Part shown: positions 8,616-32,744 of the stretch, one piece after another | Position numbering within the stretch: the stretch's first letter is position 1 | How the letters are laid out: each line of letters starts with the position of its first letter | IMG/VR virus record: IMGVR_UViG_3300042868_009434 | Length of the DNA: 64,000 nt | Reading direction: 5' to 3' (one strand) | Source: a virus | Lineage: Duplodnaviria; Heunggongvirae; Uroviricota; Caudoviricetes | Made by a program: the position numbers and the translations under genes | The notes under the pieces: generated by a model | Database searches by the model: none | The model's input: only the letters and a program-made list of their open reading frames with translations | Told to the model about the DNA's origin: nothing

Positions 8616-8628
8616 AAGTCATTTTTGG

Positions 8629-9927: not shown

Positions 9928-9929
9928 TA

Positions 9930-10784
9930 TTATTTTTCTAAGATTTGCATGATTACATCCATAATTTTGTCTTTAGCCTCTTCCGGTGAAGGTTTTTTAG
10001 CCTTTGGTGCCGGATTAGTTCCCGGATTTGGGTTCTTACCAGGATGACTTGGTCTTGTACCAGGTTTTGTTGTCGGTTTTGTTCTCGTCGGTGCGGTCTC
10101 AGTACCTGCCTCGTTTAAATAATTCATAAGCTCCTTTTTAGTTATTTTTGGTGGCAAATTTCTTTCCACAATTTTAATAATTTCATTCTCAAGGAACAAA
10201 GATACGGGATTTTTTTGTTCTTTCAAAGATTTTTTTACATCCTTAACGCATCTCTCATATTTATTATTTTCTTTAGCACTCCATAAGTGTCTTTCTCTAG
10301 TACCAAACTCTTTACCTAACTGAGATGTACAAATTGCCCATGGATTATTTTCATCTTTTTTTGATTTCTTTTTTTCTTCAGACATACCAATCATTTTACT
10401 ATCGTGATTTTCCGGTGATGTATCATCATCCATACCATCATCTGATGCTTGGTACTCATCGTGAGAACCTTGTTGACCAGTATATGCTTGGTCCGCGTCT
10501 AAATTAAAATCATCATCTTCAGACATTTCACCTTCCGTAGCAGTTACCATAACTTCTTTAGTGCTCGGGTCTTGTGTAATATTTAAATTACCAACCTTAC
10601 CACCTGCTGGTCCTACTTTATATGTTTTTTTACCGGGTACCTCAGTAACTTGTTCACTAGCAAGTTTACTATGTAATACATTGATTTGAGATTCTGTTAA
10701 TTTCCCAACAGTTTTAGAGGATAACCCCTTTTCGATAAGTTCTAATGCTTTAATATTAATTTTCATAAATAACTTTCTTTTCAA
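9930..10784 (-). CDS. Hypothetical protein with a Pro/Thr/Lys-rich N-terminal segment
   Basis: 284 aa ORF with 3-nt spacing to the next gene. Confidence 0.45.
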   Translation of the reverse strand: MKRKLFMKINIKALELIEKGLSSKTVGKLTESQINVLHSKLASEQVTEVPGKKTYKVGPAGGKVGNLNITQDPSTKEVMVTATEGEMSEDDDFNLDADQAYTGQQGSHDEYQASDDGMDDDTSPENHDSKMIGMSEEKKKSKKDENNPWAICTSQLGKEFGTRERHLWSAKENNKYERCVKDVKKSLKEQKNPVSLFLENEIIKIVERNLPPKITKKELMNYLNEAGTETAPTRTKPTTKPGTRPSHPGKNPNPGTNPAPKAKKPSPEEAKDKIMDVIMQILEK

Positions 10785-11151
10785 ATTCTAATACCAAATC
10801 TCTTTCGTAGAGTTTGTCTTTTATTTTTTGTTCCGGAACACCAAATCTGAAAACCATTCTTTTTTGATTAGTCTCATCTTCTGTTTCCCATGCTAATGCA
10901 ATTATGTCGTCCATTGCATCCATCACTGAAAAAAAATCGGAGTTTTGAATCAATTCTAATTTTACATCAGTATCTCTCAAAACTCCTACTTTTTTAATAT
11001 ATTTTAAATCGGGTGGTTGAGGATATCCATTAGATGGTCGATTATCCCACGATTCACCCCACACGTCTAAAGTGTCCGAGAATATGAATTCGTAAAGATT
11101 ATCCCCTTTATAGTTAGGACCTAAACCATTTACGTAAATCAAATAACTCAT
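10756..11151 (-). CDS. Hypothetical protein, 131 aa
   Basis: ORF with overlapping gene junctions. Confidence 0.4.
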   Translation of the reverse strand: MSYLIYVNGLGPNYKGDNLYEFIFSDTLDVWGESWDNRPSNGYPQPPDLKYIKKVGVLRDTDVKLELIQNSDFFSVMDAMDDIIALAWETEDETNQKRMVFRFGVPEQKIKDKLYERDLVLEFEKKVIYEN

Positions 11152-12461
11152 GACAATAATCCTTCAGGTGTGATTTTAATTTCTTTTCCTTTATTTTCAA
11201 AAACTAAATTATTTTTATTAGTTTTCCCTATAATTTTTGCTCCTAAGTTTTCTTCTAAAAATTTTTGAGAAGCTAATTCTTGTTCAATAGTTTCAGTTAA
11301 TTTAACAACTGATTTCATTTGTCTTCTAACCTCAGTAATTGTTTTGGTTTTTCTTTCCGCAGTTTTTTGTCTATTCTCAACAATTTCTTTTTTAGAAACT
11401 TCAAAATATTTTGATAATACTTTATCTACTTTAGACTCTCCAAAAATACTATCAAAGATAGCTCCGTTTCCGTAATCTGAATCTTTTTTCTTGAATTTAG
11501 AATATTTGTACGAATCCTCATCATTATAAAAATCATCAGGATTAACATCATTAACATCGTCGTACTCATAACCTTCTCCCATATCACCTTCAACAGCAAC
11601 ATCCATATCAGCTTGGATATCTTCAACTTCACTATCGTCAGTTAAGTCTTCACCATCCATATCGTCACCACCTAAATCTTCAGTATCATCTTCAAATTTA
11701 GATAAAATATCTTCTCTATCTTCTTCAGTTAATTCATTTAAATCAAATGAAGATAACACCATATTAATAACGTATTTCATATTCTCAGAAGTCATTCCTT
11801 CTTCAGAATCTAATGTTCTAATTTTTTGAGTTAATTTACCCGTTAACTTTTGAATTGTTTTGAAAGTCACTTGTTCGTTAGAACCTCCTTCATCTTCCAC
11901 GTCAACTTCAGTATCAACATCAACTTCAGTATCTTCTAACCCTAAGTCATCATCAGACATATCTTCCATACCTGCGTCTTCCATACCCATATCACCCATT
12001 GGTGATGGTGGTAATTCCGGTGATGGAACTGCTGGTGGTGCCGACGGAACCGCTGCCGGTGCCGGAGCATCTATCTGCGGTTTTGGTGTTTTTAATGTGA
12101 ATTTTTTTTGTTCACCATATAAAGACAAACCTTCTTCATTTTCGTTAAGTCTATTTAACTCACCAGCAACTAAGTTTAATCTTTTGAATGCTTGCGAATA
12201 TGAAGAATAGTATTTTCTATTTTTCATTGGCTCCATATAATCTGTTTCAGATTCTGAAATAGTTTTCTTAATGATATAACCTTGTCTCTCTTTAACAATT
12301 TCATATTTATTACCATCAGCAAGACTAATAGAATATTCTGATGTCGCATTTTCGTTTATACGATTAGGAATTACTTCATTGAAACGAGCAATTTCCATAA
12401 TTCTTTTTAATTTTTGGTCCCCTGTTAGTTTTTCACTACCAATTGGTTTTAAATTTCCCAT
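11148..12461 (-). CDS. Hypothetical acidic protein with a Pro/Ala-rich linker
   Basis: 437 aa containing a PAPAAVPSAPPAVPSPELPP segment and D/E-rich tracts. Confidence 0.45.
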   Translation of the reverse strand: MGNLKPIGSEKLTGDQKLKRIMEIARFNEVIPNRINENATSEYSISLADGNKYEIVKERQGYIIKKTISESETDYMEPMKNRKYYSSYSQAFKRLNLVAGELNRLNENEEGLSLYGEQKKFTLKTPKPQIDAPAPAAVPSAPPAVPSPELPPSPMGDMGMEDAGMEDMSDDDLGLEDTEVDVDTEVDVEDEGGSNEQVTFKTIQKLTGKLTQKIRTLDSEEGMTSENMKYVINMVLSSFDLNELTEEDREDILSKFEDDTEDLGGDDMDGEDLTDDSEVEDIQADMDVAVEGDMGEGYEYDDVNDVNPDDFYNDEDSYKYSKFKKKDSDYGNGAIFDSIFGESKVDKVLSKYFEVSKKEIVENRQKTAERKTKTITEVRRQMKSVVKLTETIEQELASQKFLEENLGAKIIGKTNKNNLVFENKGKEIKITPEGLLS

Positions 12462-12483
12462 TGTATATTAATTTGTTTTGTTT

Positions 12484-13329
12484 TTAATTATTTAATCCGT
12501 TAAATCCACCTAACGTAATTGCGTTTAACTGAGCGTATGGTACTCCATATGCGTCGGTATAGATAGGGTGTGGTGCAATTCCATTTGCCGGTCCTCCCTC
12601 AGTAATTGACCCACCACTAAAGTTACCTAATATTTCAACAGTATACGCATATTGATTATCAACACTAATTCCTGACAACGGCCATGGACTTGGTGATGGT
12701 GTTTGAGTTTGTGTTGGTGTTGGCGTGTTTGTCGGCGTATTTGTTGGTGTACCCGTATTTGTTGGTGTATTTGTAGGTGTAGGTGTTTGAGTACCTGTAT
12801 TAGTCGGTGTGTTTGTAGGTGTAGGTGTTTGAGTACTTGTGTTAGTCGGAGTATTGGTTGGCGTACTTGTATTAGTTGGTGTATTTGTTGGAGTAGGAGT
12901 TTGAGTATTTGTTGCCGTTACAGATGGAGTTGGTGTATTTGTTGGAGTATTTGTTGGTGTACCTGTCTGAGTCTGAGTTTGAGTTTGAGTTGGCGTTTGA
13001 GTTGGTGTTGGAGTTGAGGTATTTGTTGCAGTTACCGATGGAGTTGGGGTATTTGTTGGAGTTGAAGTTTGAGTCGGTGTCGGTGTTGGAGTTGGATTAG
13101 CATCTAAACACGGTATACATTCACTATAATTTGTTGACATGGTTGCAACATAATCTGAACCCGTTCCTGGTTCCGCAGTATCAACTACTTCATAACATCC
13201 CTGAGTTGTTACACCTGTGAATGTTAAATAATAATTTCCTCCCACTGCTGGAAGTGATGAACCGTTAAATTCTACGGTTAGTGATGAACCACCCGCGCAA
13301 GGTGCTATAAGATATGTAACGAATGCCAT
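12484..13329 (-). CDS. Putative virion structural protein with a long (T-P-T-N/Q) repeat linker
   Basis: 281 aa. A Cys-containing N-domain is followed by about 35 TPTN-type repeats and a Gly-rich C-domain. A TATAAATA motif lies 12 nt upstream. Confidence 0.5.
12690..13100. repeat. Tandem 12-nt coding repeats (ACNCCNACAAAT-like) encoding the TPTN linker
   Basis: Direct periodic repeats are visible in the sequence: ggtgt..gt.tt.gt.gg in many copies. Confidence 0.7.
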
Positions 13330-13337
13330 TTAATTTT

Positions 13338-13352
13338 TTATTTATAAATATA
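13338..13352 (-). promoter_or_regulatory. T4-late-promoter-like TATAAATA
   Basis: The minus strand reads atatttataaataaaaaattaaATG, which includes an exact TATAAATA. Confidence 0.45.
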
Positions 13353-13383
13353 CGATTATTAACAATTATTGAAATTTTACCAA

Positions 13384-14115
13384 CTAATCCTCCATTTTTC
13401 TTTCAACGGATAGTTCTTTGTCGGTACCTTTATTTATTGAATTAAATAATTTTTCAATATGTTCGGACCTTCTCAAATATTTAAACACCAAATTTTCATA
13501 GGATAATTCCCCATCACCATCCAATCCGGATTGTCGATATTTCTTTAATTTCTCTTTAAGTGATTCAAGAACTTTGACATTACCATTCTCTACGGCAGTA
13601 TCAATTTTTTCAACCCAATTTTGTATTTTATCCTCAAGAACTTTTTTATCTATTTCTAAATTCATTTTCTTTGGGACATTAATCCATTTGTTATTCATCA
13701 CAGAATAAACACCTGAACTAGTATGAGGTTCTTCGGCATCTTGGGCGTATAATTCAACATCATATCCAAATATTTTAATATTGTGTTTGTCGTTAAAAAG
13801 TTGTTTTTTTAAATTGAATAGTTCTTTGTATAATTCATCCTCATCTCCGTATTCGTCCATGTCAACAATAATGTGTAAATCAAAATCAGAAAATTCCGAC
13901 CAATTAAAATTTGAAAGAGAACCGGTTAGGACAACATCTTCAACAAATACATCATCACCCAAATAGTTGACAAATTCCTCAGCAATACGCTCAAGAGCTT
14001 TTCTAACTTTAGGAATCATAGTTGACTTTTTAGGGTCAGTAGGATTTTCCCATACTTTTGGGTTAAGTGTATCTTTAATAGTGAAACTATTAAGTATTTG
14101 TTGTAATTTACTCAT
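13384..14115 (-). CDS. Pol-beta superfamily nucleotidyltransferase (minimal NTase fold) protein
   Basis: The motif LTGSLSNFNWSEFSDFDLHIIVD fits the G[SG]-x10-DhDh pattern. It is followed by a helical C-terminal domain. Confidence 0.5.
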   Translation of the reverse strand: MSKLQQILNSFTIKDTLNPKVWENPTDPKKSTMIPKVRKALERIAEEFVNYLGDDVFVEDVVLTGSLSNFNWSEFSDFDLHIIVDMDEYGDEDELYKELFNLKKQLFNDKHNIKIFGYDVELYAQDAEEPHTSSGVYSVMNNKWINVPKKMNLEIDKKVLEDKIQNWVEKIDTAVENGNVKVLESLKEKLKKYRQSGLDGDGELSYENLVFKYLRRSEHIEKLFNSINKGTDKELSVERKMED

Positions 14116-14126
14116 TATTATAAATA

Positions 14127-14369
14127 CTACAGTTTCTTATACTTGTAGGCTTTTGATATATCAGTTACAAAATATTTTCCTTGAGACTCTGCTGCTCTGA
14201 ATTTTGTGTAGGTTTGGTGTGGAACTTCATCATACTCATACTTGAATCCATTGTTAAATTCAACAATCATTTTTTTTGTTTCAGTATCGTATTCTGTTCG
14301 TTTAATGTTTGACGATTTTATTTCATTAATAATCTTCGTCCCCTTGATTTCCTCTCTCGTAATCCCCAT
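14127..14369 (-). CDS. KTSC-domain-like small protein
   Basis: The segment IVEFNNGFKYEYDEVPHQTYTKFRAAESQGKYF fits the KTSC domain pattern (Y.Y..V....F..A.S.G.Y). Confidence 0.4.
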   Translation of the reverse strand: MGITREEIKGTKIINEIKSSNIKRTEYDTETKKMIVEFNNGFKYEYDEVPHQTYTKFRAAESQGKYFVTDISKAYKYKKL

Positions 14370-14658
14370 CGCTTAGTGGTGTTAGTTCGTTTATGTTTTT
14401 TAAAATAGGTTTCAAATATTCATTAAAATCCTCTTTTTCTACCTCAAAACCTAAGTCCTTCATCTGTTGAAGTAAATCTCTTATTTCACCACCAAATTTT
14501 TCATGAAGTGTCATTAATTGTGCCGAGTAATATGGTGGCCTTTCTAAATCCTTTTCACTCCACCCTTCTGATTGGAAATATTGTCTTATCTTAAGATATA
14601 TTTCAATTATGCGTTGTAACCCAACACTACTAACTAAAAAATTTTCAAATGGTCTCAT
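14326..14658 (-). CDS. Hypothetical protein, 110 aa
   Basis: ORF only. Confidence 0.35.
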   Translation of the reverse strand: MRPFENFLVSSVGLQRIIEIYLKIRQYFQSEGWSEKDLERPPYYSAQLMTLHEKFGGEIRDLLQQMKDLGFEVEKEDFNEYLKPILKNINELTPLSDGDYERGNQGDEDY

Positions 14659-14674
14659 ACTTATAAATATAACT

Positions 14675-15244
14675 ATGGACGTAACTGAAACATTTATTAA
14701 GCACGGAGATTACAATGTCGAGAATATTTTAAAAATAATTAAAGACAATAATTTGGATTGGGATGAATTCACCGATAGACAAAAAAGGTATAATTCTGAA
14801 CACGTCCACACAAAAACAATTCCAATAATTTTTGATAAGTCATTTAATTTTAACCATTTAAAAATAATCCCAACTACTCATTACCCTTTATTTAAAGAAG
14901 AGATTACCAAAATTGAGGATATTATTAAACTCAATACCGGAGAAAATGGCAGAATTATGAGGGCTTTATTAGTTAAGTTAACTGCCGGAGAATCCATCAG
15001 ACCTCATGTTGATATTGTAGGATTTAGTTTGGTTATTTGCCGAAGAATCCACATACCAATTCAAACAAATGAAGATTGTTTTTTTACGGTAGGTGATGAT
15101 AAAAGAAATCTAAAATTAGGTGAGCTATGGGAAATTAACAACGACAAACAAAAACACTCTGTTGATAATTTTGGGGAAACCGATAGAATACATTTAATTG
15201 TTGATTGGATTGAAGAATCTTTATTTGAATCATATGGTATCTAA
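14675..15244 (+). CDS. Aspartyl/asparaginyl beta-hydroxylase-like 2OG-Fe(II) oxygenase (cupin)
   Basis: Candidate iron-binding motifs are RPHVD and RIHIPIQ/RIHLIVD. The start is taken at the internal Met MDVTETF. Confidence 0.5.
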   Translation: MDVTETFIKHGDYNVENILKIIKDNNLDWDEFTDRQKRYNSEHVHTKTIPIIFDKSFNFNHLKIIPTTHYPLFKEEITKIEDIIKLNTGENGRIMRALLVKLTAGESIRPHVDIVGFSLVICRRIHIPIQTNEDCFFTVGDDKRNLKLGELWEINNDKQKHSVDNFGETDRIHLIVDWIEESLFESYGI

Positions 15245-15911
15245 AACACAAAAAATAATATTTTTATATCCTCCAAAAACAGCATCTAATTCTTTACGTG
15301 TTAGTTTAAATAATAATGGGTTTATTGAAGACACACAAAATGACACATATCTTACACCAAAACTTCACTTAAAATTAGATGAAATTATGGTTGCCTATGA
15401 TATCGAGTCTCTTGACGGATATAAAGTTATACAAGTAACTAGAAATCCTTATGATAGAATGATATCCGGATATTACCATCAAATTAGGATTTTTAATCGA
15501 CCTGACTTTGAATCAAGTGCTTCGATTAGTGGATACACATTTGACCAATTTTTACTTCATTTAAACTCAACAAAAAATTCTGAAAATTTTATTGATGATT
15601 TTTATTGTGATTCATCTCATCACATCAACTATGTTATTGAAAATAAAAAATCATGGGGAGGAATTCGATTTTACTACACTCAAAGTAGTTGGAAAAACGT
15701 AGATTGTGATTTTTATCATTTTAAGTTAGAGGATTTAAGTAAAGACATCAAACCGTTAAGTGATTTAATCAACTTACCTTTGTCCCCCTTATATCAAATT
15801 AACCCTAACCCTATAAAGGTTAATTATGAAACCCACAAAACACCTCAAAATAAATTAATCATTCAAAATTTATTTTCAGAAGATTTCGATACTTTTGGAT
15901 ATGAAAAATAA
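15234..15911 (+). CDS. PAPS-dependent sulfotransferase-like protein
   Basis: A 5-prime PSB motif YPPKTASNSL and a 3-prime PB motif VTRNPYDRMISGY (RxPxxRxxS) are present. The start overlaps the previous stop (ATGGTATCTAA). Confidence 0.55.
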   Translation: MVSKTQKIIFLYPPKTASNSLRVSLNNNGFIEDTQNDTYLTPKLHLKLDEIMVAYDIESLDGYKVIQVTRNPYDRMISGYYHQIRIFNRPDFESSASISGYTFDQFLLHLNSTKNSENFIDDFYCDSSHHINYVIENKKSWGGIRFYYTQSSWKNVDCDFYHFKLEDLSKDIKPLSDLINLPLSPLYQINPNPIKVNYETHKTPQNKLIIQNLFSEDFDTFGYEK

Positions 15912-15942
15912 AACCCCACCTAATGGGCGGGGTTTCTTTTTA
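15911..15942. terminator. Bidirectional rho-independent terminator hairpin
   Basis: The hairpin aaccccacctaatgggcggggtt is followed by a T-run. It lies between convergent genes. Confidence 0.55.
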
Positions 15943-16317
15943 CTTCTTTAATTTCTTTAATTCATCACGAATTTCAATTGACCTTTCAAAATTATGGTCC
16001 TTAATTGTTTGTTTCAACTCTTCTTCAAGTTTCGTAATGGTTTCTTGATTAAGTTCCATTTTTTTAATTTGGTCTCTAATTTCAACCGCTTTTTCAAAGT
16101 CTTCATTTTCGATTGCCAACTCAAGTTGTCGTTTTAAACCATTTGCACCTTTATGTGTCTTTGGTTCATTACTTCTATAATAAGTAGTAACTTTCATAGT
16201 ACCATCTTCAGATACTTTAGTTTGTGATTTCCATTCCCCTAAACGAGAATCGAACTGAGCGAACATATCATCAAACGCTCTTAAAATGTCATTAAAGTTT
16301 TTTTCGTTTCCAAACAT
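15940..16317 (-). CDS. UVR (UvrB/UvrC-motif) domain protein with two UVR motifs
   Basis: The motifs EDFEKAVEIRDQIKKME and ERSIEIRDELKKLKK are present. The gene is divergent from the ClpC-like gene. Confidence 0.55.
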   Translation of the reverse strand: MFGNEKNFNDILRAFDDMFAQFDSRLGEWKSQTKVSEDGTMKVTTYYRSNEPKTHKGANGLKRQLELAIENEDFEKAVEIRDQIKKMELNQETITKLEEELKQTIKDHNFERSIEIRDELKKLKK

Positions 16318-16489: not shown

Positions 16490-18505
16490 ATGAACGACTT
16501 AATGGACGAAAACGACAAATCAGGTAACAGAGCTCAAAAACAAGCTATGGACACAAATACTCCTGTATTAGACAATTTCAGTAGAGATTTAAACAAACTA
16601 GCGGAGGCAGGTAAATTAGACCCTGTAATTGGTAGAGATGCCGAGATTTTGAGAATCGCACAAATCCTTTCTCGTAGAAAAAAGAATAACCCTATTATCA
16701 TAGGTGAGCCCGGGTGTGGTAAAACTGCACTTGTTGAGGGTCTTGCCATGAAAATCGTAAGTGGAGAATGCCCAAGAAACTTAGTGGACAAAAGAATCGT
16801 GAACCTTGATTTAACTTCAGTTGTTGCAGGTACCAAGTATCGTGGACAATTCGAAGAAAGAATGAAAGTGATTATTGAAGAACTAAGTGCAAATCCAAAC
16901 ATCATCGTGTTTATTGATGAGATTCATACATTAGTTGGTTCAGGTAATTCATCAGGTTCAATGGATGGTTCAAACATCTTCAAACCAGCACTTGCTCGTG
17001 GTGAGGTTCAATGTATTGGAGCAACAACTCTTGATGAGTTCCGTAAGAACATTGAAAAAGACGGAGCATTGGAAAGAAGATTCCAAAAAGTAGTTGTGGA
17101 ACCATCAACAGTTGAGGAAACAATCGAAATCCTTAAAAATGTTCGTGATAAATACGAATCATACCACAAGGTATTGTACAGTGACGAAGTTGTTGAAACT
17201 TGTGTTAAATTGGCGGACCGTTATATTACCGACCGTGAGTTTCCGGATAAAGCGTTTGATATCTTAGATGAGGTTGGGGCTCGTATGCAAACCGAGATTA
17301 AAGTTCCTGAAGTTATTGAGGAATTGAAAAAGAAAGCTGCGGAGATTAAAATTGAGAAAATGGAAGTAGTTAAAAAACAAAACTACGAACAAGCGGCCCA
17401 ACTTAGAGATAAGGAGAAAAAATTGTTAATCAAACTTGAGGCGGAAAAAGAGAAGTTTTCAAAACAAATGGATTTGGAAAAACAAACTATTGTTCTTGAA
17501 ACTGTTTATCAAGTTGTATCAAGTATGACTAAGATTCCTGTGAATAAAATGGACGCAGATGACTCTAAAGCATTGATGAATTTAGATAAATCAATCATGG
17601 GTAAAGTAATTGGTCAAGACGCGGCTGTTGTTAAGATTGCTAAATCAATCAAGAGAAACCGTTTAGGTATCAAAGACCCTAACAGACCTATTGGTTCATT
17701 TATCTTCTTAGGTTCAACCGGAGTGGGTAAAACTCACTTGGCAAAACAATTGGCTAAAGAGATGTTTGGAACTGAAGATTCACTTATCCGTGTGGATATG
17801 TCAGAATACCAAGAGAAACACTCAATCTCTAAATTGGTTGGAGCACCTCCGGGATATGTTGGGTATGAAGAAGGTGGATTATTAACTGAGAAAGTTAAAA
17901 ACAAACCATATTCTGTTATCTTATTTGATGAGGTGGAGAAAGCTCACAAAGATGTCTTCACGGTTTTACTTCAAATCTTGGATGATGGATTTGTAACCGA
18001 TAGTTTAGGTAGAAAGATTAACTTCAAGAATACCTTGATTATCTTAACCTCTAACTTGGGTGTTAAGAAATTACAAGACTTCGGTACTGGTATTGGTTTC
18101 TCAAATAACTCATACGCAGATGAGGAGGCGAAAAAACAAATCTTGATGAAAGAAATGAAAAACTTCTTCTCTCCGGAGTTTATTAACCGTATTGACGACA
18201 CTATTGTCTTCAATTCATTATCTCCTGAAGATATTGAAAAAATTACAGAGATTGAGTTAAAGAAATTAATGACTCGTCTTGGTGATATGAAATACACAGT
18301 AACCTACAATGATGAAGTAGTAAAATACTTGGCTAAGATTGGGTTCGATGAAGTGTACGGAGCAAGACCATTGAAGAGAGCAATCCAAGATAAGATTGAG
18401 GATTTGTTATCTGAAGAAGTGTTAACCGGTAAAATGATTGAAGGTAAATCTTACCAAATTAAAATGGATGGAGAGGATATCAAAATCACTAAAAAAGGTA
18501 GATAA
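16490..18505 (+). CDS. clpC: ClpC/ClpA-type AAA+ unfoldase with two nucleotide-binding domains and no N-domain
   Basis: D1 Walker A is GEPGCGKTA and D2 Walker A is GSTGVGKTH. The UVR-like middle domain reads YEQAAQLRDKEKKL. Candidate ClpP-docking loops are GTGIGFS and the GARPLKR sensor. Confidence 0.85.
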   Translation: MNDLMDENDKSGNRAQKQAMDTNTPVLDNFSRDLNKLAEAGKLDPVIGRDAEILRIAQILSRRKKNNPIIIGEPGCGKTALVEGLAMKIVSGECPRNLVDKRIVNLDLTSVVAGTKYRGQFEERMKVIIEELSANPNIIVFIDEIHTLVGSGNSSGSMDGSNIFKPALARGEVQCIGATTLDEFRKNIEKDGALERRFQKVVVEPSTVEETIEILKNVRDKYESYHKVLYSDEVVETCVKLADRYITDREFPDKAFDILDEVGARMQTEIKVPEVIEELKKKAAEIKIEKMEVVKKQNYEQAAQLRDKEKKLLIKLEAEKEKFSKQMDLEKQTIVLETVYQVVSSMTKIPVNKMDADDSKALMNLDKSIMGKVIGQDAAVVKIAKSIKRNRLGIKDPNRPIGSFIFLGSTGVGKTHLAKQLAKEMFGTEDSLIRVDMSEYQEKHSISKLVGAPPGYVGYEEGGLLTEKVKNKPYSVILFDEVEKAHKDVFTVLLQILDDGFVTDSLGRKINFKNTLIILTSNLGVKKLQDFGTGIGFSNNSYADEEAKKQILMKEMKNFFSPEFINRIDDTIVFNSLSPEDIEKITEIELKKLMTRLGDMKYTVTYNDEVVKYLAKIGFDEVYGARPLKRAIQDKIEDLLSEEVLTGKMIEGKSYQIKMDGEDIKITKKGR

Positions 18506-18510
18506 TAAGG

Positions 18511-18538
18511 AAGGGGATGAAAATCCCCTTTTTTTTTG
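18511..18538 (+). terminator. Rho-independent terminator after the ClpC-like gene
   Basis: The hairpin aggggatgaaaatcccct is followed by T9. Confidence 0.6.
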
Positions 18539-18558
18539 TTTTATAAATAGAGCATAAA

Positions 18559-18584
18559 AAAAGAGACCAAATGGTCTCTTTTAT
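18559..18584 (-). terminator. Terminator hairpin for the minus-strand peptidase gene
   Basis: The hairpin aagagaccaaatggtctctt is flanked by an A-run and a T-run. Confidence 0.5.
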
Positions 18585-18587
18585 ATT

Positions 18588-19430
18588 TTAGAAGAATCTG
18601 TGATTATATCTTGGAATCTCAACCACTTCTTTGTAGTGTAATTTATTTCCAAGTTTTTCAATCATTTGTCTTCCCATCTCAATTCCTTTAAAAACATCCT
18701 CAATCACCACATATTCGTTTGGTGTGTGATAATCGTAGTACCCAATTGAAAAGTTAATACAAGAAAAACTGAATTTACTTCTCAACGCGTAAACGTCAGT
18801 GTATGGGTGAACCATATATTGCATATCTTCGTTATGCATCCCTTCGGTTAATACTTGGTCACAAACCTCAAAGAACTCAGACTCCCTATCAAACAAATCT
18901 TGACTGAAACATTTCTCAGTAATCATCCAGTTCTCAGGGGCATCAAATTGAATACCATAACCAACATTGGTGAAAAATTCAGGGTCAGCCTTTTTGGAAC
19001 CGTGACATCCTGTTTCTTCAGATACGAAAAATGCAGCTTTTAAGTTTGGAACTTCTTTAAGTAATTTTAAACAAGCAAAAACACCACACTTATCATCACC
19101 ACCGATTCCGGTTGGTAATCCGTTTAAGTTGTAAGCCTTTAATGCGTCTTTAATCTCACCTTGAGCGTTTGGTAATTGTTCTTCATGAACAATAATTGTA
19201 TCTAATCGGTGAACCGTATCGGTATGAGCAATAACACATGGGAAATAAAAATCTTCAGGAAGTGTTTCAAATTCTTTTTTTGTTGCATAAACATTTTTGT
19301 GTTCATCAACGTAATGTTCTATGTTGTTTTCGGTCAACCAATTCTGTAAAAACTCGACCATAAGGTCTTCTTGATAAGTTACGGTTGGAACACTAAGAAC
19401 TTCTTTTAATAATAATATATCGTTTGTCAT
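18588..19430 (-). CDS. M20/M28/M42-family metallopeptidase-like protein
   Basis: Motifs HTDTVH, GGDDKCG and SEETGCHG resemble the metal-ligand motifs of aminopeptidases. Confidence 0.5.
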   Translation of the reverse strand: MTNDILLLKEVLSVPTVTYQEDLMVEFLQNWLTENNIEHYVDEHKNVYATKKEFETLPEDFYFPCVIAHTDTVHRLDTIIVHEEQLPNAQGEIKDALKAYNLNGLPTGIGGDDKCGVFACLKLLKEVPNLKAAFFVSEETGCHGSKKADPEFFTNVGYGIQFDAPENWMITEKCFSQDLFDRESEFFEVCDQVLTEGMHNEDMQYMVHPYTDVYALRSKFSFSCINFSIGYYDYHTPNEYVVIEDVFKGIEMGRQMIEKLGNKLHYKEVVEIPRYNHRFF

Positions 19431-19447
19431 GGGACAAAGATAATAAA

Positions 19448-20584
19448 TTAATTCATATTTTCATAATCATCTAAAGAATATTGATATAAAAAATTGTTAA
19501 ATTGTTCTTCATCTAATCTAAGTTGTTTAAATAACCCATTATCTTTAGTTTTAACATTTAACCTAACAGACATACTACCAACATCAAATGAGTCAATTAG
19601 AAAAATAATATTATCATCTTTAGGATTAGTATACCAAGTTTTTAATTTATATTTTGATGTAACTCGGTCTCTAAATTCGACAAAATCTTGAACAGTATAT
19701 CCTTCATCACTTCTCTCATCCAATTTTTCTAATATTTTTTCAAATTGATGAGATACGTAATTATTAAATGACTTTGAATCAAATTTACTCTCATCTTGGA
19801 ACTCGTAACTATTTTCATACCAACCCCCAACATTACTACCTAACGCCTTTTGCATCATTGCCACAATAATTTCTTTGGCGTCTGAGTTAAACATATTCAA
19901 TTGTAATGCCCCAAGATATAAATCTGCCAAGGTAATCTCAACTTCATCCATATCATAGTTAAGGTTAATACCGTTTTCTTCCAATGGTTTTTCAAATTCG
20001 TCTTTTACCGCCTCTTTTGCAACCGCATTCATTTCACTGTCTTTTTCAGCCGCAAAATCCCCAAAAATGTAATCCATTTCATCATAGAATAAATTAAGTA
20101 ACATTTCAGATAACTCTGTTTTATATTCTTCATCCTCAATATTAAATTCCTTATTCGGCAAAATTGTGGTTGCAATACCTTTAAGTGTTTTTACATTTTC
20201 ATCATTTAAATCATAATATATTCCATACCCATCTTTAAAATCCTGTTCCACCTGATACGAATCCATAAATTCATAACCATTATACGAATTAAGGGCTCCC
20301 ATAAACCAAATGTCCTGCTCATCAATATCCAATTCTTTAAACAATTCTTTATCATCCTCAAATTGAATTGTAATAATTGATTGTCCCAAAGGTTCGTTTA
20401 CATCAATATCATATATGCTATCGTCAAGACGATATAACTCATCTTTACTGATTCTACCTTTAGAAAAGTTTCTAAGACCCACAACTAAATTTTTATCCGG
20501 TTCTTCCTCAGATTCTTGTTCGGTCTGTAATACCCTCTTAACAATACGATTAAGTTCAGATTCGGTTAATTTTATTACCTTCAT
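19448..20584 (-). CDS. Hypothetical acidic protein (ORF extends to 20671; preferred start MKVIKL at 20584)
   Basis: Long ORF. Choosing the internal Met avoids overlap with the tmRNA 5-prime end. Confidence 0.45.
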   Translation of the reverse strand: MKVIKLTESELNRIVKRVLQTEQESEEEPDKNLVVGLRNFSKGRISKDELYRLDDSIYDIDVNEPLGQSIITIQFEDDKELFKELDIDEQDIWFMGALNSYNGYEFMDSYQVEQDFKDGYGIYYDLNDENVKTLKGIATTILPNKEFNIEDEEYKTELSEMLLNLFYDEMDYIFGDFAAEKDSEMNAVAKEAVKDEFEKPLEENGINLNYDMDEVEITLADLYLGALQLNMFNSDAKEIIVAMMQKALGSNVGGWYENSYEFQDESKFDSKSFNNYVSHQFEKILEKLDERSDEGYTVQDFVEFRDRVTSKYKLKTWYTNPKDDNIIFLIDSFDVGSMSVRLNVKTKDNGLFKQLRLDEEQFNNFLYQYSLDDYENMN

Positions 20585-20660
20585 TAAAATGATTTTACAA
20601 TAAATACTTTTTTTGTTTGGAATTTCAATATTTATGTTTACCTTTGTGGTGTTAAAATAT

Positions 20661-21057
20661 GGGAGTGACATGGAATTGACTATTCGTAATAGTTATTCGG
20701 GGCACGTAGTGAGAAGTTTCCTATCACTTAAATCTATGGATGACAAACTTTTAGACGGAAACGTTTTAGACAAACTTTCAGCTGTTGGATTTATCCGCAC
20801 TGAAGAAGTTGCTGTAGCCTAATCGGAAACACAACACGGGGTCGGTGGTCAGATAACCTTGCAACAGAAGACTTTACAAAGGTGTGGTTTCTACCCGAAA
20901 AGAAACAAGTGGAGGATTAGTTCTCAGTAAACCGAACCACTTTAAAAATAAGGGAATTGTGAAATTTCGGATTGTTAGCTTAAACAATGACCTAAACGTG
21001 TAGTCCTTAATAGGTAATACAAGTAACACCGGAGTTCGAGTCTCCGCACTTCCACCA
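20661..21057 (+). ncRNA. ssrA: tmRNA (SsrA), phage-encoded
   Basis: The 5-prime end GGGAGUG-ACAUGGAAUUGAC parallels E. coli GGGGCUG-AUUCUGGAUUCGAC. The 3-prime T-arm cggagttcgagtctccg is followed by acceptor strand cacttcc, which pairs with gggagtg, and then ACCA. An internal tag frame ends ...TEEVAVA-TAA (gct gta gcc taa). Confidence 0.75.
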
Positions 21058-21061
21058 AAAT

Positions 21062-21090
21062 AAAACCCATCGTAATGATGGGTTTTTTTA
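21062..21090 (+). terminator. Terminator hairpin after the tmRNA (repeated element)
   Basis: aaacccatcgtaatgatgggttt followed by T7. A near-identical copy occurs at 28035. Confidence 0.6.
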
Positions 21091-21117
21091 TTTAATAATT
21101 TTTATTATAATTAAATC

Positions 21118-24375: not shown

Positions 24376-24567
24376 ATGAAAACAATAATTAAAAATTTAA
24401 AATTAAGAATTAAATTATTTTTCGTATTTTTGCGATGGTGTTGTCTATACCCAAACGATATAAAAGAGAATTGGGATGATATGAATGTTAGATATTATAA
24501 TGAGACAGACCCAGAAATGTTAAAAATATTTAAAGAATTAGAAGATGAAAGTGATATTTCTAGATAA
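24376..24567 (+). CDS. Hypothetical small protein
   Basis: ORF only. Confidence 0.3.
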   Translation: MKTIIKNLKLRIKLFFVFLRWCCLYPNDIKENWDDMNVRYYNETDPEMLKIFKELEDESDISR

Positions 24568-25114
24568 CGATGGTGTTATCTGTTTAGCAAATAATTGGGG
24601 GAGTCGTGTTAAAAAACGAAAGAAAGACAAAGTTTCTTTGATAATGAATGACCCTGATGTTGAGGCAAAATATCGTTTTGATTACTTTGATAAAAAGGCA
24701 ATCAAGGTATTGAATCAGGTATTGGAAGAAACCGGAGCGGAAATCGTTGTGTCTTCCGATTGGAGATTATATGCCAATTTAGAAGAACTTGGTGAATATT
24801 ACTTATCAGAAGGAATTATTAAAAAACCAATCGCAGTCACCAAACGATACATCGGTTGTGATAAACCAGATGAGTTTGAATGGGTACGAGCAACAATGTA
24901 CGAACAACAAAGATGTATTGAAGTTAGACAATATCTAACTGACCATCCTGAAATCACACATTGGGCATGTATTGACGATTTAGAGTTAGGTCAAACAAAC
25001 TCTTATGGAACTGCTAGAAAGTGGGGATTATCAAACTTTGTTCACACACCAAGAGAAAATGAGGGGATTAAACAATCAGGTATTAAAGAAAAATTGTTAG
25101 AATACCTTAAATAA
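24545..25114 (+). CDS. HAD-superfamily phosphatase-like protein
   Basis: Motif I is FLDNDGVI, motif II is VVSSDWR, and a C-terminal ACIDDLE segment serves as the Asp motif. Confidence 0.55.
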   Translation: MKVIFLDNDGVICLANNWGSRVKKRKKDKVSLIMNDPDVEAKYRFDYFDKKAIKVLNQVLEETGAEIVVSSDWRLYANLEELGEYYLSEGIIKKPIAVTKRYIGCDKPDEFEWVRATMYEQQRCIEVRQYLTDHPEITHWACIDDLELGQTNSYGTARKWGLSNFVHTPRENEGIKQSGIKEKLLEYLK

Positions 25115-29358: not shown

Positions 29359-29399
29359 TAACAAATTCAAAAAATATCAATTAAATACAAAAAAAATTG

Positions 29400-29474
29400 T
29401 GTCCTCGGCAGGCATCGAACCTGCATATCTCTCGGTTATGAGCCGAGCGCCTTCACCAATTTAGCTACAAGGAC
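29400..29474 (-). tRNA. tRNA-Met/Ile2 (anticodon CAT)
   Basis: Hand-folded: acceptor gtccttg/cgaggac, anticodon loop ctCATaa, T-arm gcaggttcgatgcctgc. Confidence 0.55.
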
Positions 29475-29564
29475 AAAAATTAGGTTTTGGTGTAAACACC
29501 CTACATGACTTTAACCTAAAAAGTACACTGAGTAATTTAAAACCCCCAGCGGTTTAATTGTGAC

Positions 29565-29792
29565 CTATTGGTGGTTCTTAATGTACCTACCAAATTTATC
29601 CACCCTCACAGAGAGTTTCTCCAATCTAAAGTTCCATTGTTTGAACTTTCCTAAGCCGGTTCTTAACCTTGCTTGTTTAATTGCAGATTCCTCTGCCTTT
29701 TCACGTCCTTCTTCTGTGGTTTCCACAAAAAAAGTGGGAGCCTGAACACCGTTTCTAACGGGAACTACTCTCCAAATTCTCAATTTCTGAGT
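29565..29792 (-). CDS. Hypothetical small basic protein
   Basis: ORF MTQKLRIWRVVPVRNG...; a weak S21-like pattern was not accepted. Confidence 0.25.
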   Translation of the reverse strand, partial: TQKLRIWRVVPVRNGVQAPTFFVETTEEGREKAEESAIKQARLRTGLGKFKQWNFRLEKLSVRVDKFGRYIKNHQ

Positions 29793-29985
29793 CATAATAC
29801 TTGAACTAATCAAGTACTACGAGGAGTTGGGTTTTTGGTTTTTCATATTGATAATTTACACATTTTCTAATTAAAAGAAATATCAAACATTTGGTGGTCT
29901 ATCACCTCACATTTTCAACGGGTCCAATTTTATGTGTGCCTCACGGGTTTACTTCTGCAATGTCGCTTTAATGTTTGGTATTTTG

Positions 29986-30065
29986 TATCCCCGGTGAGAG
30001 TCGAACTCACATGCCTGAGCAACAAGTCTTAAGCCTGTCGTGTATACCAGTTTCACCACGGGGAT
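29986..30065 (-). tRNA. tRNA-Leu (anticodon TAA), type II
   Basis: Acceptor atccccg/cggggat, anticodon arm acagg-cttaaga-cttgt, long variable arm, T-arm gtgagttcgactctcac. Confidence 0.6.
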
Positions 30066-30071
30066 ATTTTG

Positions 30072-30154
30072 AGCTTCCGATTGGATTCGAACCAACGTGA
30101 CCTTTCGGTTCCTGATTACAAATCAGGTGCAATCAACCTCTATGCGACGGAAGC
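30072..30154 (-). tRNA. Atypical type-II tRNA; anticodon loop uuUGUaa (nominal UGU/Thr) with a 14-nt variable arm
   Basis: Acceptor gcttccg/cggaagc, 3-bp D-stem, anticodon stem cctga/tcagg, T-arm gttggttcgaatccaat. Confidence 0.4.
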
Positions 30155-30421
30155 CTGTTTACATTATCACTTCGGCCACATTGGGAGAACCGCAGTTCCC
30201 ACGTTGTTTAAGGAGGTAGTTGGCGGTGTATCACACCGAGTTATGATAATGTATATTTTTACACATCCCTCAAGATGGGGATAACATTGCCCAGAGTACG
30301 ACCTCACAGACTATTATCATACTCAACAAACATAACACTTCTTGTAGTGTTGTAATGAATTTTTTTTCCCCTGTGTTCAATACACCGAATTACTTGTTTG
30401 CCTTTCTATGTGTAAATTTTG

Positions 30422-30496
30422 TACCCACGGTGAGAGTCGAACTCACAAAATCTTCTGAGCCTAAATCAGACGGCTTTCCCGTTTGCCCACGAGGGT
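30422..30496 (-). tRNA. Atypical tRNA-like gene, anticodon UAG with G37 and a short variable arm; shares its T-arm with tRNA-Leu(TAA)
   Basis: Acceptor accctcg/cgtgggt with one U-U mismatch, anticodon arm tctga-tttaggc-tcaga, T-arm gtgagttcgactctcac. Confidence 0.35.
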
Positions 30497-30498
30497 AA

Positions 30499-31167
30499 TT
30501 ATTTTTTTTCGTATGACTTAATCCATTTACGAATTGAATTGTCTGACACACCATATTTTCTACCTGTACCAACATAACCTAATTCACTAATCTCTTTGAT
30601 TAAAACATTATAATCAGGTCGACTAATTTTTTTAGATTTTTCAAATTTACAATCTAAACAAGTTATTGCCTTATCAGAAATTAAATTACCACAATCACAT
30701 TTTTTTGTTTTTTTTATTATAATTTCTTTAACATTTTTTCTACCTGAATAATTATCGGTAATTGAATGACAATTTGGACATAATATTTGTAAATTATTTA
30801 ATTGATTATTAAATCTATTTCCGTCTATATGATGTAATTCTAATGATATTTTATTTTCTAACCATTTATCTAACCCACAATTTTCACATCTATGTTCTTT
30901 AATCCCATCCTCAATTAATTTAACCCTTAATTTGTGTGAATTTATACTATCACAACTTTCAATGTAATCTAAAGCGGTTCTTCGTTTAGAATCTGTTTTT
31001 TTACCTCTTAATCCTTGATTTCCCGAATAATCTATTTCTAACTTTTTCAAATAACTCTCTAAAGTAGATGGTCGACAATTTAATACCTTACATATTGACG
31101 ATTTTGATTCGTTATTTTGAATCATAGTGATAATGTGTTCTTTTTTTTCTAATATGTCTATTCTCAT
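30499..31167 (-). CDS. HNH homing endonuclease
   Basis: The HNH segment CENCGLDKW...LHHIDGN...NLQILCPNCHS is present, along with additional Cys pairs, a zinc ribbon and an HTH-like C-terminus. It lies within the tRNA island. Confidence 0.8.
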   Translation of the reverse strand: MRIDILEKKEHIITMIQNNESKSSICKVLNCRPSTLESYLKKLEIDYSGNQGLRGKKTDSKRRTALDYIESCDSINSHKLRVKLIEDGIKEHRCENCGLDKWLENKISLELHHIDGNRFNNQLNNLQILCPNCHSITDNYSGRKNVKEIIIKKTKKCDCGNLISDKAITCLDCKFEKSKKISRPDYNVLIKEISELGYVGTGRKYGVSDNSIRKWIKSYEKK

Positions 31168-31239
31168 AATACTTTCTTTATATTATAAATATAACATACT
31201 TGTTAAAAAACTAAACAACAAGTATAACATTTTTATTTG

Positions 31240-31311
31240 TACCCTCAATAGGACTCGAACCTATATCAAAACATTAGAAGTGTCTTATTCTATCCCTTGA
31301 ACTATGAAGGC
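31240..31311 (-). tRNA. tRNA-Arg (anticodon TCT)
   Basis: Anticodon arm agaca-cttctaa-tgttt, T-arm ataggttcgagtcctat, acceptor gccttca/tgagggt with G-U pairs. Confidence 0.55.
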
Positions 31312-31318
31312 GGTTTGG

Positions 31319-31390
31319 AGCAGATAGAGAGAATCGAACTCTCGTTTCAAGATTGGAAGTCTGGAGTAATAACCATTATACGATATCTGC
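31319..31390 (-). tRNA. tRNA-Gly (anticodon TCC)
   Basis: Acceptor gcagata/tatctgc, anticodon loop cttccaa, T-arm gagagttcgattctctc. Confidence 0.55.
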
Positions 31391-31470
31391 AGATTTGGGT
31401 AGAATCAGACGCGTTCTGTCTACCGGGACCTCGTCGTTGACTTTCATCAGAGCGGACCAAGACACATTTG
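31391..31470. other. Unresolved 80-nt structured spacer between tRNA-Gly and tRNA-Met
   Basis: Contains the hairpin ggtaga..tctacc and CUGAUGA-like and gcggacc segments. No tRNA fold was found by eye. Confidence 0.2.
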
Positions 31471-31542
31471 TAGCGGGAGAAGGATTCGAACCTCCGACCT
31501 AGAGGTTATGAGCCTCCCGAGCTACCTCTGCTCTATCCCGCA
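31471..31542 (-). tRNA. tRNA-Met (anticodon CAT), second copy; U1-U72 mismatch suggests a possible initiator
   Basis: D-arm gagc-agaggta-gctc, anticodon arm ggagg-ctcataa-cctct, T-arm ggaggttcgaatccttc. Confidence 0.55.
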
Positions 31543-31548
31543 ATTTGT

Positions 31549-31618
31549 TGCAAATCTCAGGAATTGAACCTGATTAAGTCGGCTTATGAGACCGATGAGA
31601 TACCTTACCTCCCGACTG
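31549..31618 (-). pseudogene. tRNA-like element with a CAT anticodon arm and an intact T-arm but a non-pairing acceptor stem
   Basis: D-arm gag..ctc, anticodon arm tcggt-ctcataa-gccga and T-arm tcaggttcaattcctga are present. The acceptor 5-prime strand cagtcgg does not pair with the 3-prime strand gatttgc. Confidence 0.3.
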
Positions 31619-31632
31619 CTGTGTATTATTTA

Positions 31633-31707
31633 TGGCGGTCTATGAGAGAATCGAACTCTCATCTCTACCGTGACAGGGTAGCATCCTAGCCGTTGAACGA
31701 ATAGACC
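31633..31707 (-). tRNA. tRNA-Asp (anticodon GTC) with encoded CCA
   Basis: Acceptor ggtctat/atagacc-g-CCA, anticodon arm ctacc-ctgtcac-ggtag, T-arm gagagttcgattctctc. Confidence 0.7.
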
Positions 31708-31806
31708 AAAATTTCAATTCAAAGGTGACAATCCTATAACAATTGAAGGAGAAAGAACCGTGTTTCCCGGGTAGTGACTTCCCGTATTCTGTCTTTCTGT
31801 TTTTTG

Positions 31807-31878
31807 TGGAGCTATGGAGAATCGAACTCCAATTTATGATTTGCAAAACCATAGTAATTGCCGTTATACTATAACCCC
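31807..31878 (-). tRNA. tRNA-Ala (anticodon TGC) with G3-U70
   Basis: Acceptor ggggtta/tagctcc includes the G3·U70 identity pair. Anticodon arm atggt-tttgcaa-atcat. Confidence 0.7.
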
Positions 31879-31884
31879 TTCTTG

Positions 31885-31956
31885 TACTGCCACGGAGAAT
31901 CGAACTCCGATTTTATGGATGAAAACCATATGTCCTGACCGTTAGACGATGGCAGC
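31885..31956 (-). tRNA. tRNA-Glu (anticodon TTC)
   Basis: Acceptor gctgcca/tggcagt, anticodon arm tatgg-ttttcat-ccata, T-arm cggagttcgattctccg. Confidence 0.65.
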
Positions 31957-32012
31957 GTGTGTATTACCAATATTTCAAATAACTTGTTTCTGTTTGATGG
32001 TACAAAGATAAT
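31957..32012 (-). promoter_or_regulatory. Promoter-like repeat copy A immediately upstream of the tRNA-Glu 5-prime end
   Basis: The minus strand reads ..cTTTGTaCcaTCAAAcAgAAacaaGTTATTTGAAATATTGGTAAtacacac before the tRNA. A 20-nt segment is identical to copy B at 36207-36266. A Bacteroidota-like -33 TTTG and a -7 TAtTTG element are present. Confidence 0.45.
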
Positions 32013-32434
32013 ACTTTATTTTAATCTACCAAACTTTATCCTTTTTCTTCTTCAGTTTCTTCTACATCAACTAAAATGTATTCTGACCCTAAGATTGGTG
32101 AATAAACCAATTCTAATTTTTGATACGTTGTATCGTTTGTTTCTTGTCCTTCCATCTTTAAATTTGTTTCGACAAAGGTAATCATTTTTTTCAAACTACC
32201 AAACATAATGTAAAAAAAAAATCCACCTCTTTTGGAGATGGATTTTATTATATTATTAATTACTTAACTATACATCATACCATCTCCGTCCAAGTTGTAT
32301 CTCTACCCTCGGCTCCTATCGTAAGTAATAATGTATTTAAAGTTTGCATTTGTTGTGTTATTGTAATTTTCTAATAAATATAGTCCTTTTTATAAAAGTG
32401 TCAAGTATTGGTAAGATTTATTTTTAATTTTGGG

Positions 32435-32520
32435 ATAATGATAGGATTCGAACCTATAACCTATACCGACCACATTGTCGGCTGCACGTCCAATTGTGCT
32501 TCAAAATCCATATTTCTTCA
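32435..32520 (-). other. Unresolved tRNA-like element; a canonical T-arm is present but the body is not foldable by eye
   Basis: T-arm ataggttcgaatcctat, with a hairpin ccgac-aatgtg-gtcgg that resembles a variable arm. A possible 5-prime acceptor lies about 60 nt further upstream. Confidence 0.2.
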
Positions 32521-32581
32521 GGAGAGACCCTCAAGGGATAACCATAACGGAATTACCCTTGACTCACTCTCCGTCTTCTTG

Positions 32582-32652: not shown

Positions 32653-32744
32653 ATGTATAAAAACACCCGACCTGACCTGCCAGATAGTACGTGTCGTAGC
32701 GCTTTCGTTACGTAGCGGATGTTTTAATTTTTAAGATTATTACT

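Follow-up and report, generated by a model that had tools for sequence, protein, structure and literature searches.

Why would a large phage encode a transfer-messenger RNA (tmRNA) of its own, with a tag twice as long as the host type? The question is raised by a 64,000-nucleotide stretch of IMG/VR virus record IMGVR_UViG_3300042868_009434 (the window, meaning here the whole stretch analyzed), in which a tmRNA (ssrA) gene occupies positions 20661-21057 of the plus strand, 394 nt through the discriminator A and then an encoded CCA. Comparative sequence analysis makes it very likely that this locus is the gene for a working one-piece tmRNA, of Bacteroidota type, in a large T4-related phage.

The Rfam tmRNA covariance model, RF00023, scores 20661-21057 at 69.0 bits (gathering score 47, E = 8.8e-25), a match that spans model positions 1-374 of 374, places the RNA in this family, and upholds the original prediction of a tmRNA gene at the locus. 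That prediction had also reported tRNA-like ends and a canonical T-arm, all of which are present (GGGAGUG/CACUUCC, A, CCA, and CGGAG-UUCGAGU-CUCCG). Its extent of 20661-21092 stands at the start and needs correction at the end, as the RNA gene stops at 21057 and the remainder is an intrinsic terminator. The elements of the locus are as follows.

20639-20646 (+): putative promoter-like element TACCTTTG, of the Bacteroidota -7 type, 14 nt 5′ of the mature end
20661-20667 (+): 5′ strand of the acceptor stem, GGGAGUG, pairing with CACUUCC at 21047-21053 (7 bp, G3.U included)
20709-20744 (+): pseudoknot 1 (PK1), stem 1 GUGA/UCAC (20709-20712 with 20724-20727), stem 2 GUUUCC/GGAUGAC (20716-20721 with 20738-20744)
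20752-20759 (+): frame-setting element UAGAC (U at -5; A at -4, position 20753) with resume codon GGA at 20757-20759
20757-20822 (+): tag frame, 21 codons GNVLDKLSAVGFIRTEEVAVA, then the UAA stop at 20820-20822
20808-20835 (+): helix 5, GUUG.UGU/ACA.CAAC, with the stop codon in its loop
20839-20873 (+): pseudoknot 2 (PK2), GGGU/ACCU and GGUC/GACU
20881-20906 (+): pseudoknot 3 (PK3), GGU/ACC and GUUUCU/AGAAAC
20908-20988 (+): candidate pseudoknot 4 (PK4), AGUGG/CCACU and CCGAA/UUCGG, with terminal hairpin AUUGUU/AACAAU (20971-20988)
21030-21046 (+): T-arm, CGGAG-UUCGAGU-CUCCG
21054 and 21055-21057 (+): discriminator A and encoded CCA, read from the sequence
21062-21093 (+): intrinsic terminator, AAAACCCATC-GTA-GATGGGTTTT and a T run, stem at 21062-21086

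The terminator hairpin is retained in related phages with differing sequences, TTTG motifs directly 5′ of the tmRNA are retained as well, and the genes called in public assemblies leave a gap at the locus.

Relatives of the RNA were gathered in two ways. A 27-nt probe taken from the tmRNA 3′ end and matched exactly recovered ten IMG/VR contigs, all with a full Rfam tmRNA match of 65.6-70.5 bits. Further loci were fetched through the neighboring gene for a ClpC-type unfoldase, of which more than 594 IMG/VR stretches, the longest contig having 321 kb, encode a version at 67-97% identity; a profile search found a same-strand tmRNA homologue in 62 of the 80 ClpC loci kept. Distinct full-length homologues from IMG/VR number 62, and the family is carried by more than 100 IMG/VR contigs, from phages of up to ∼320 kb. 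A blastn search of deposited phages, for which the window copy and two sequences central to the family served as queries, returned no match.

A hand-built structure comprising P1, P2, four pseudoknots, helix 5, the terminal hairpin, and the T-arm was tested on the 15 sequences that could be aligned over their whole length. A standard pair was observed in 93.2% of cells, compared with 84.1% after columns were shuffled (0 of 500 shuffles reached the observed value) and 41-44% when partners were slid by 1-3 columns. Pairs changed on both sides numbered 32, against 19.4 after shuffling (again 0 of 500) and 7-12 with slid partners. Covariation was seen in P1, P2, both PK1 stems (each with doubly changed pairs), PK2 stem 2, PK3 stem 2, the terminal hairpin, and the T-arm; the tRNA-like domain, P2, and pseudoknots 1-3 are thus kept through compensatory changes. 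In the acceptor stem, four of seven pairs covary, and across the clade the stem appears as GGGAGUG/CACUUCC, GGGGAUA/UAUCUCC, GGGCCCG/CGGGUCC, and GGGGAAG/CUUCUCC. The T-arm is paired in 100% of cells with four of its five pairs changed on both sides, and the terminal hairpin has four such pairs. Stem 2 of PK2 occurs as GGUC/GACU, GAAC/GUUC, or GGAC/GUCU, and in PK3 stem 2 UU/AA is replaced by AC/GU in five sequences.

The internal reading frame can be fixed from the same relatives. Miller et al. 2008 (PMC2481249) showed A86 of E. coli tmRNA to be conserved almost without exception and to fix the frame four nucleotides further on. Base -4 is A in all 62 family members, and since this invariant A fits the A86 ruler, the resume codon is assigned to GGA at 20757-20759; base -5 is a pyrimidine in 62 of 62. 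Resume codons in the family are GGC (48), GGA (10), and GAC (4), and stop codons are TAA (55), TAG (5), and TGA (2). In eight of the 12 relatives in which the tmRNA finder ARAGORN calls the gene, its start and tag agree with this assignment. An alternative site 15 nt downstream in frame, UAGAC|AAA, was rejected, as the A at -4, the Rfam alignment, the position in Bacteroidota, and ARAGORN in relatives all favor GGA; this second UAGAC copy is missing from most family members.

The frame is under selection as a peptide. Entropy at codon positions 1, 2, and 3 is 0.83, 0.62, and 1.23 bits in the tag, against 1.44, 1.27, and 1.24 bits in the 30 nt upstream (62 sequences), and changes among relatives downstream of UAGAC|GGA are synonymous or conservative. 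Of the 62 tags, 49 have 21 residues and 13 have 22, the sole indel being exactly one codon. Its consensus is G-N-[VT]-[LFI]-x-K-[ML]-x-x-[LIV]-G-L-[IVT]-[RK]-x-[ED]-x-x-V-x-A, and in the 49 21-residue tags G1 (47), K6 (48), G11 (49), and L12 (46) are near-invariant. A 69-amino acid open reading frame (ORF) at 20613-20822, which includes the tag, was rejected as a gene: relatives have stops or a 1-nt indel upstream of GGA, and codon periodicity begins only there. The original prediction had reached the same view of this ORF and had read the frame to its end as ...GFIRTEEVAVA-stop, which proves correct with UAA at 20820-20822; the resume codon it had left to be found is the GGA described above.

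Altogether 58 of these tags end in Ala, preceded by V, T, or A. Endings include TVA, AVA, VVA, VAA, VTA, and others; none is LAA and none YALAA. The window tag ends V-A-V-A, lacking the canonical ssrA L-A-A end and having a short, non-polar, Ala-terminated one. It had been described at the outset as unlike host tags, and this holds against the GENNYALAA type of the probable host phylum; judged by its residues, the -V-x-A end nevertheless looks degron-like rather than clearly divergent in kind. The redirection of trans-translation products that the original prediction proposed is conjectural.

Several family members vary inside the tmRNA gene. Group I introns (Rfam RF00028, 72-98 bits) lie in the T-loop at three loci (L065 15113-15340, L050 15130-15346, and L037 12871-13087), and because the intron interrupts the T-loop, these tmRNAs would need splicing to function. 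In five others (L068, L028, L025, L018, and L054), GGCGG or GGCAG replaces UUCGA in the T-loop of an otherwise intact tmRNA. The tmRNA at L011 14524-14933 is only 59% identical to window 20661-21054, though the ClpC of the two is 97% identical; they share PK1 and differ in tag type and in the PK3/PK4 modules, a pattern suggesting that parts of the tmRNA gene have been exchanged as modules.

Bacterial counterparts were sought with a probe from the phage PK1 segment, GCAYGYAGTG-N13-CACTTAAATCT, for which about one chance match is expected by our own estimate rather than a tool's computation, and whose design was partly guided by a Bacteroides tmRNA sequence. At least 120 loci were found in a genome collection, nearly all of them Bacteroidota among the matches listed. 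ARAGORN reports tags in 101 of the 120 listed loci, including GENNYALAA (44), GETNYALAA (20), GNENYALAA (8), and similar ones. The coding part begins at nt 95-97 in the eleven Bacteroidota loci inspected individually, as does the phage resume codon, which likewise specifies Gly; in PK1 signature and predicted resume geometry, the phage RNA follows the Bacteroidota type. A profile of the phage family matches bacterial tmRNAs over the 3′ tRNA-like end only, at no more than 24 bits, and therefore points to an old, diverged lineage rather than a recent capture.

Other signals in the window agree with a Bacteroidota host. Low use of Shine-Dalgarno motifs and a TAnnTTTG -7 element are typical of Bacteroidota. 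A Shine-Dalgarno-like motif precedes two of 67 window genes (background 7.6%), and TAnnTTTG occurs within 60 nt upstream of ten of the 67 (background 4.4%). Over the whole window TAnnTTTG is not significantly enriched (109 observed, 100 expected), the enrichment being confined to positions upstream of genes. Just 4 nt 5′ of several starts stands TATCTTTG or TATATTTG (window 19435-19442 on the minus strand, 54029-54036, 56136-56143, and 62064-62071 on the minus strand), a spacing that suggests leaderless transcripts from Bacteroidota -7-type promoters. The host of the window phage is probably a member of the Bacteroidota.

The phage itself was called T4-like in the original prediction, which is right in the broad sense and not in the narrow one. 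Its portal (Portal_T4, 254 bits, gp20 type), large terminase (Terminase_6N, 56 bits, gp17 type), and prohead protease (Peptidase_S77, 77 bits, gp21 type) are of T4 type; the closest deposited portals are 35-40% identical and include those of Flavobacterium phages and Rhodothermus phage RM378, and the nearest one of all belongs to Microcystis phage Mel-JY01, which infects a cyanobacterium. Relatives sit on contigs of 309-322 kb, and together with a portal no more than 40% identical to that of any deposited phage, this gives it the look of a jumbo "far-T4" phage.

The tmRNA gene lies among genes for protein turnover and translation.

15940-16317 (divergent, ∼170 bp upstream of the ClpC start): 125-amino acid protein carrying a pair of UVR motifs, similar to the C-terminal end of McsA
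16490-18505 (+): ClpC-type double-AAA+ unfoldase without N-domain, matching S. aureus ClpC residues 147-802 in one stretch (740 bits)
18588-19430 (-): M20-family (PepT-like) peptidase
19448-20584 (-): conserved 378-amino acid protein, divergent from the tmRNA
29399-36206 (-): island of 26 tRNAs, 8 kb from the tmRNA and on the opposite strand
43043-43789 (+): ClpP with an intact Ser-His-Asp triad (Pfam CLP_protease 1.2e-50, NCBIfam ClpP, aligned with PDB 1y7o)

The window ClpC combines two AAA+ modules with a short M-domain, reads GIGF opposite AGF in the loop that docks on ClpP, and lacks the adaptor-binding N-domain; an IGF-type loop is the rule for ClpP docking (PMC8138137). The 378-amino acid gene does not overlap the tmRNA, because public gene calls use the start that gives this length, and for its product, whose structural model is confident, searches by family, sequence, and fold gave no match. 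In all 47 loci with at least 6.1 kb of sequence downstream of ClpC, a tmRNA follows on the same strand at 2.0-5.7 kb, and the ClpC loci without a tmRNA match all have 5.6 kb or less. A functional link of the tmRNA with ClpC and ClpP is putative. All linked loci belong to one clade with shared gene order, so the adjacency of tmRNA and ClpC may simply be inherited synteny. The 635-kb huge phage LR745206 has ClpC and no tmRNA within 12 kb of it.

SmpB, the protein partner of tmRNA, was searched for with the E. coli sequence, which gave no match in Bacteroidota loci and so had no positive control there. This probe found SmpB beside the tmRNA in four relatives, confirmed by Pfam at 164-177 bits, and it is from these strong matches that the probe draws its validity. 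A search with phage SmpB then yielded 79 loci, in 37 of which a tmRNA of the family lies 0.1-2.2 kb away, convergent in 36. These 37 loci also hold ClpC (34), the M20 peptidase (37), and the 378-amino acid protein (33). The original prediction had grouped the tmRNA with the tRNA island as a toolkit for translational autonomy; the idea is reasonable, with the island 8 kb off on the opposite strand and SmpB added in relatives.

Some further observations concern these neighbors. GOLLD RNA (RF02032, 250 and 287 bits) occurs in a close relative at L007 1-298, beside SmpB and tmRNA, and at L211 (LR745206.1) 9535-9940, 2 kb upstream of ClpC; none reaches the gathering score in the window. About 0.7 kb downstream of SmpB in L012, with a glucosaminidase gene between, 16713-20009 encodes a 1098-amino acid CarboxypepD_reg and outer-membrane beta-barrel protein (SusC/TonB-like), which is either a phage-borne outer-membrane protein of host type or the mark of a chimeric contig. 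RNA-repair-type genes accompany the tRNA island of the window (24545-25114, 32876-33340, and one ORF in 36-64 kb), namely a HAD_SAK_2 protein, an RNA_lig_T4_1 match, and an HNH endonuclease inside the island. Two weak Rfam tRNA matches on the minus strand, 31549-31619 and 32433-32508 (31.2 and 31.7 bits), have no ARAGORN call and may be divergent or degenerate.

A number of points weigh against a functional tmRNA at 20661-21057. ARAGORN, the second tool by which the original prediction was to be judged, finds 26 tRNAs in the window and reports no tmRNA there; it also calls none of the ten contigs recovered with the 27-nt probe. It detects 12 of 73 family members, compared with 101 of the 120 Bacteroidota loci listed, and because 61 of the 73 homologues are missed, its silence is a limit of the tool for this phage family rather than evidence against the RNA. 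The G3.U pair and discriminator A were required by the filter used to find the gene ends, so that their constant presence holds only for the 67 of 72 matches that passed; the five failures comprise three intron-split copies (L050, L065, and L037) and at least two that are cut short (L064 and L079). Helix 5 pairs in 87.8% of cells in its outer stretch and in only 60% in its inner one, which is weak support. The base of helix 2 is atypical, with non-canonical pairs marked by Rfam and a local 5′ hairpin competing with the long-range helix. Pseudoknots had been named from the start as one of the features on which the prediction should turn: covariation bears out PK1 in both stems and PK2 and PK3 in stem 2 of each, and the stems of the PK4 candidate are invariant in the alignable set and carry no covariation signal either way. 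Finally, neither Pfam nor the SmpB probe finds an SmpB gene in the 64-kb window. In a 309-kb contig whose ClpC is 97% identical to that of the window, SmpB lies ∼185 kb from the tmRNA, and its absence from 64 kb therefore says little.

If the gene works as its features predict, it would be transcribed from its own promoter and halted at its own terminator, and the host alanyl-tRNA synthetase would charge the RNA with alanine through the G3.U pair. SmpB, supplied by the host or by a phage copy outside the window and encoded by the phage in many relatives, would bring the charged RNA to stalled ribosomes. Translation would resume at GGA, adding A-GNVLDKLSAVGFIRTEEVAVA, and the ribosome would be freed at UAA. 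The -V-A-V-A end would then probably mark the product for a Clp-type protease. An E. coli-type ssrA tag ending in -LVA was the fastest-degraded variant tested in Salmonella (PMC11003136), and with this precedent the non-polar Ala end makes proteolytic targeting, by host ClpXP or by phage ClpC-ClpP, plausible. The likely benefit is that ribosomes stalled by decay of host mRNA or by host defenses would stay available throughout a lengthy infection with heavy translation. The phage carries 26 tRNAs and RNA-repair-type genes and must express a long genome; the freeing of ribosomes is favored as the likeliest gain.

How far the phage might go beyond this is a matter for much more tentative claims. 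The tag could be a private degron, read by the N-domain-less phage ClpC with ClpP, possibly through an adaptor; rescued proteins would be broken down and then trimmed by the M20 peptidase, with no reliance on host ClpXP. The linkage of ClpC and tmRNA (47 of 47 ClpC-anchored and 34 of 37 SmpB-anchored loci) speaks for such a scheme, as do the GIGF docking loop, the intact ClpP triad, the absence of a host-type YALAA end from all 62 tags, and the precedent of Mesoplasma florum, where a long tag has a matching protease of its own. A C-terminal degron would moreover not require the conservation seen at K6, G11, and L12 in the tag's middle; in E. coli, SspB recognizes the front portion of the tag (PMC8138137), and by analogy one might speculate that this middle offers a second, SspB-like recognition surface. 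However, the linked loci all come from one clade with conserved gene order, in which adjacency may be inherited, the distant huge phage LR745206 has its ClpC without a tmRNA within 12 kb, ClpP is 22 kb away in the window, and host ClpXP could equally read a -V-x-A end. On balance, the private degron is an unlikely reading, if one worth stating. A clade of Bacteroidota jumbo phages with a self-contained tag-and-recycle system, made up of tmRNA, often SmpB, N-domain-less ClpC, ClpP, and the M20 peptidase with the 21-residue tag as private degron, would be a similarly doubtful proposition; such a phage could dispose of stalled translation products and reuse them without the host.

The remaining explanations ask less of the tag, or of the RNA. 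Ribosome release is the essential activity of trans-translation in several bacteria, and the phage RNA might do just this, with a tag that has no proteolytic role; near-invariant residues and a length fixed at 21-22 would be unexpected were the tag sequence irrelevant, which leaves this account quite improbable. A phage tmRNA whose tag differs from the host type might also compete with or replace the host tmRNA, blunting a tagging-dependent response or evading a defense that senses stalled ribosomes, yet the carriage of SmpB in relatives suggests that capacity is added rather than a pathway blocked, and such interference appears highly improbable. Prophages often integrate in ssrA and carry off fragments, and a 69-codon open frame does exist, so the locus might be a host leftover from an integration site, or 20613-20822 the real gene. 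Almost no credence can be given to a non-working gene of either kind: the RNA is full length with compensatory changes over 62 variants, bacterial tmRNAs score at most 24 bits with the phage profile and speak against recent capture, the long ORF is closed or shifted by 1 nt in relatives with periodicity from GGA only, and public gene callers leave the locus empty. A functional tmRNA that frees ribosomes, and whose tag probably leads to proteolysis, is the reading preferred here.

Elsewhere in the window, 12484-13329 (-) encodes a 281-amino acid protein consisting largely of PT/TN repeats, downstream of the structural block. Two adjacent carbamoyltransferase genes (Carbam_trans_N/C) lie in 39137-42394, their ORFs assigned by size only, and sugar-modifying genes include those for a dTDP-sugar epimerase, a sulfotransferase, and a family 17 glycosyltransferase.

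These phages offer a natural case for asking what the tmRNA tag is for, as the same phages carry tmRNA, SmpB, a Clp unfoldase, and ClpP, and the tag is doubled relative to the host type yet under tight selection at the peptide level. If a phage protease does read the tag, the two would form an orthogonal degron-protease pair for Bacteroidota; otherwise, the family is a further example of large phages with their own genes for maintaining translation. Published counts of phage tmRNAs rest on ARAGORN, which misses about five in six copies of this family, and rescans with covariance models would probably raise them.

Of two surveys that used this tool, one (Buchholz et al. 2022, PMC9004378) reported tmRNAs in 402 of 18,146 phage genomes, and in the other tmRNA and SmpB were listed among the translation genes of huge phages (Al-Shayeb et al. 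2020, PMC7162821). Like phage tmRNAs generally, the one described here is a ribosome-rescue RNA of the phage's own, sometimes accompanied by SmpB, among translation genes such as tRNAs. The T4-like marine phages of Buchholz et al. have two-piece tmRNAs of alphaproteobacterial type, whereas that of the window is one-piece and of Bacteroidota type. The phages closest in character are the freshwater bS21 Bacteroidetes jumbo phages of Chen et al. 2022 (PMC9723584), which have genomes of 293-331 kb, 31.0-33.7% GC, 5-25 tRNAs, Flavobacteriia/Bacteroidetes hosts, myovirus-type structural genes, and Clp protease and chaperone genes; their RNAs were annotated with tRNAscan-SE, and tmRNA is not mentioned. 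The window resembles them in its 32.5% GC, its 26 tRNAs, and its relatives on 309-322 kb contigs. No opposite-strand ORF for bS21 was seen among the ORF translations of the structural block in window 1-16000; the window begins inside this block, and a bS21 gene could sit just beyond its edge.

The RNA shares with chromosomal tmRNAs of Bacteroidota its one-piece form, the PK1 signature GCAYGYAGTG-N13-CACTTAAATCT, and a Gly resume codon at nt 95-97, and some phage tags still start with G-E-T or G-N. Bacteroidota tags have nine residues and end in -YALAA or -YAYAA, in contrast to the 21-22 residues, K-[ML]-x-x-[LIV]-G-L core, and -V-x-A end of the phage tags. A long ssrA tag of an uncommon type is paired with mf-Lon in Mesoplasma florum, as shown experimentally (PMC8138137); a long tag is common to the two systems, but the protease there is Lon, and pairing with phage ClpC-ClpP is suggested here only by gene neighborhood. 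Phage tmRNAs as such are already known, and the features that set this variant apart are its doubled, conserved tag and the fixed block of ClpC, M20 peptidase, 378-amino acid protein, tmRNA, and, in many relatives, SmpB.

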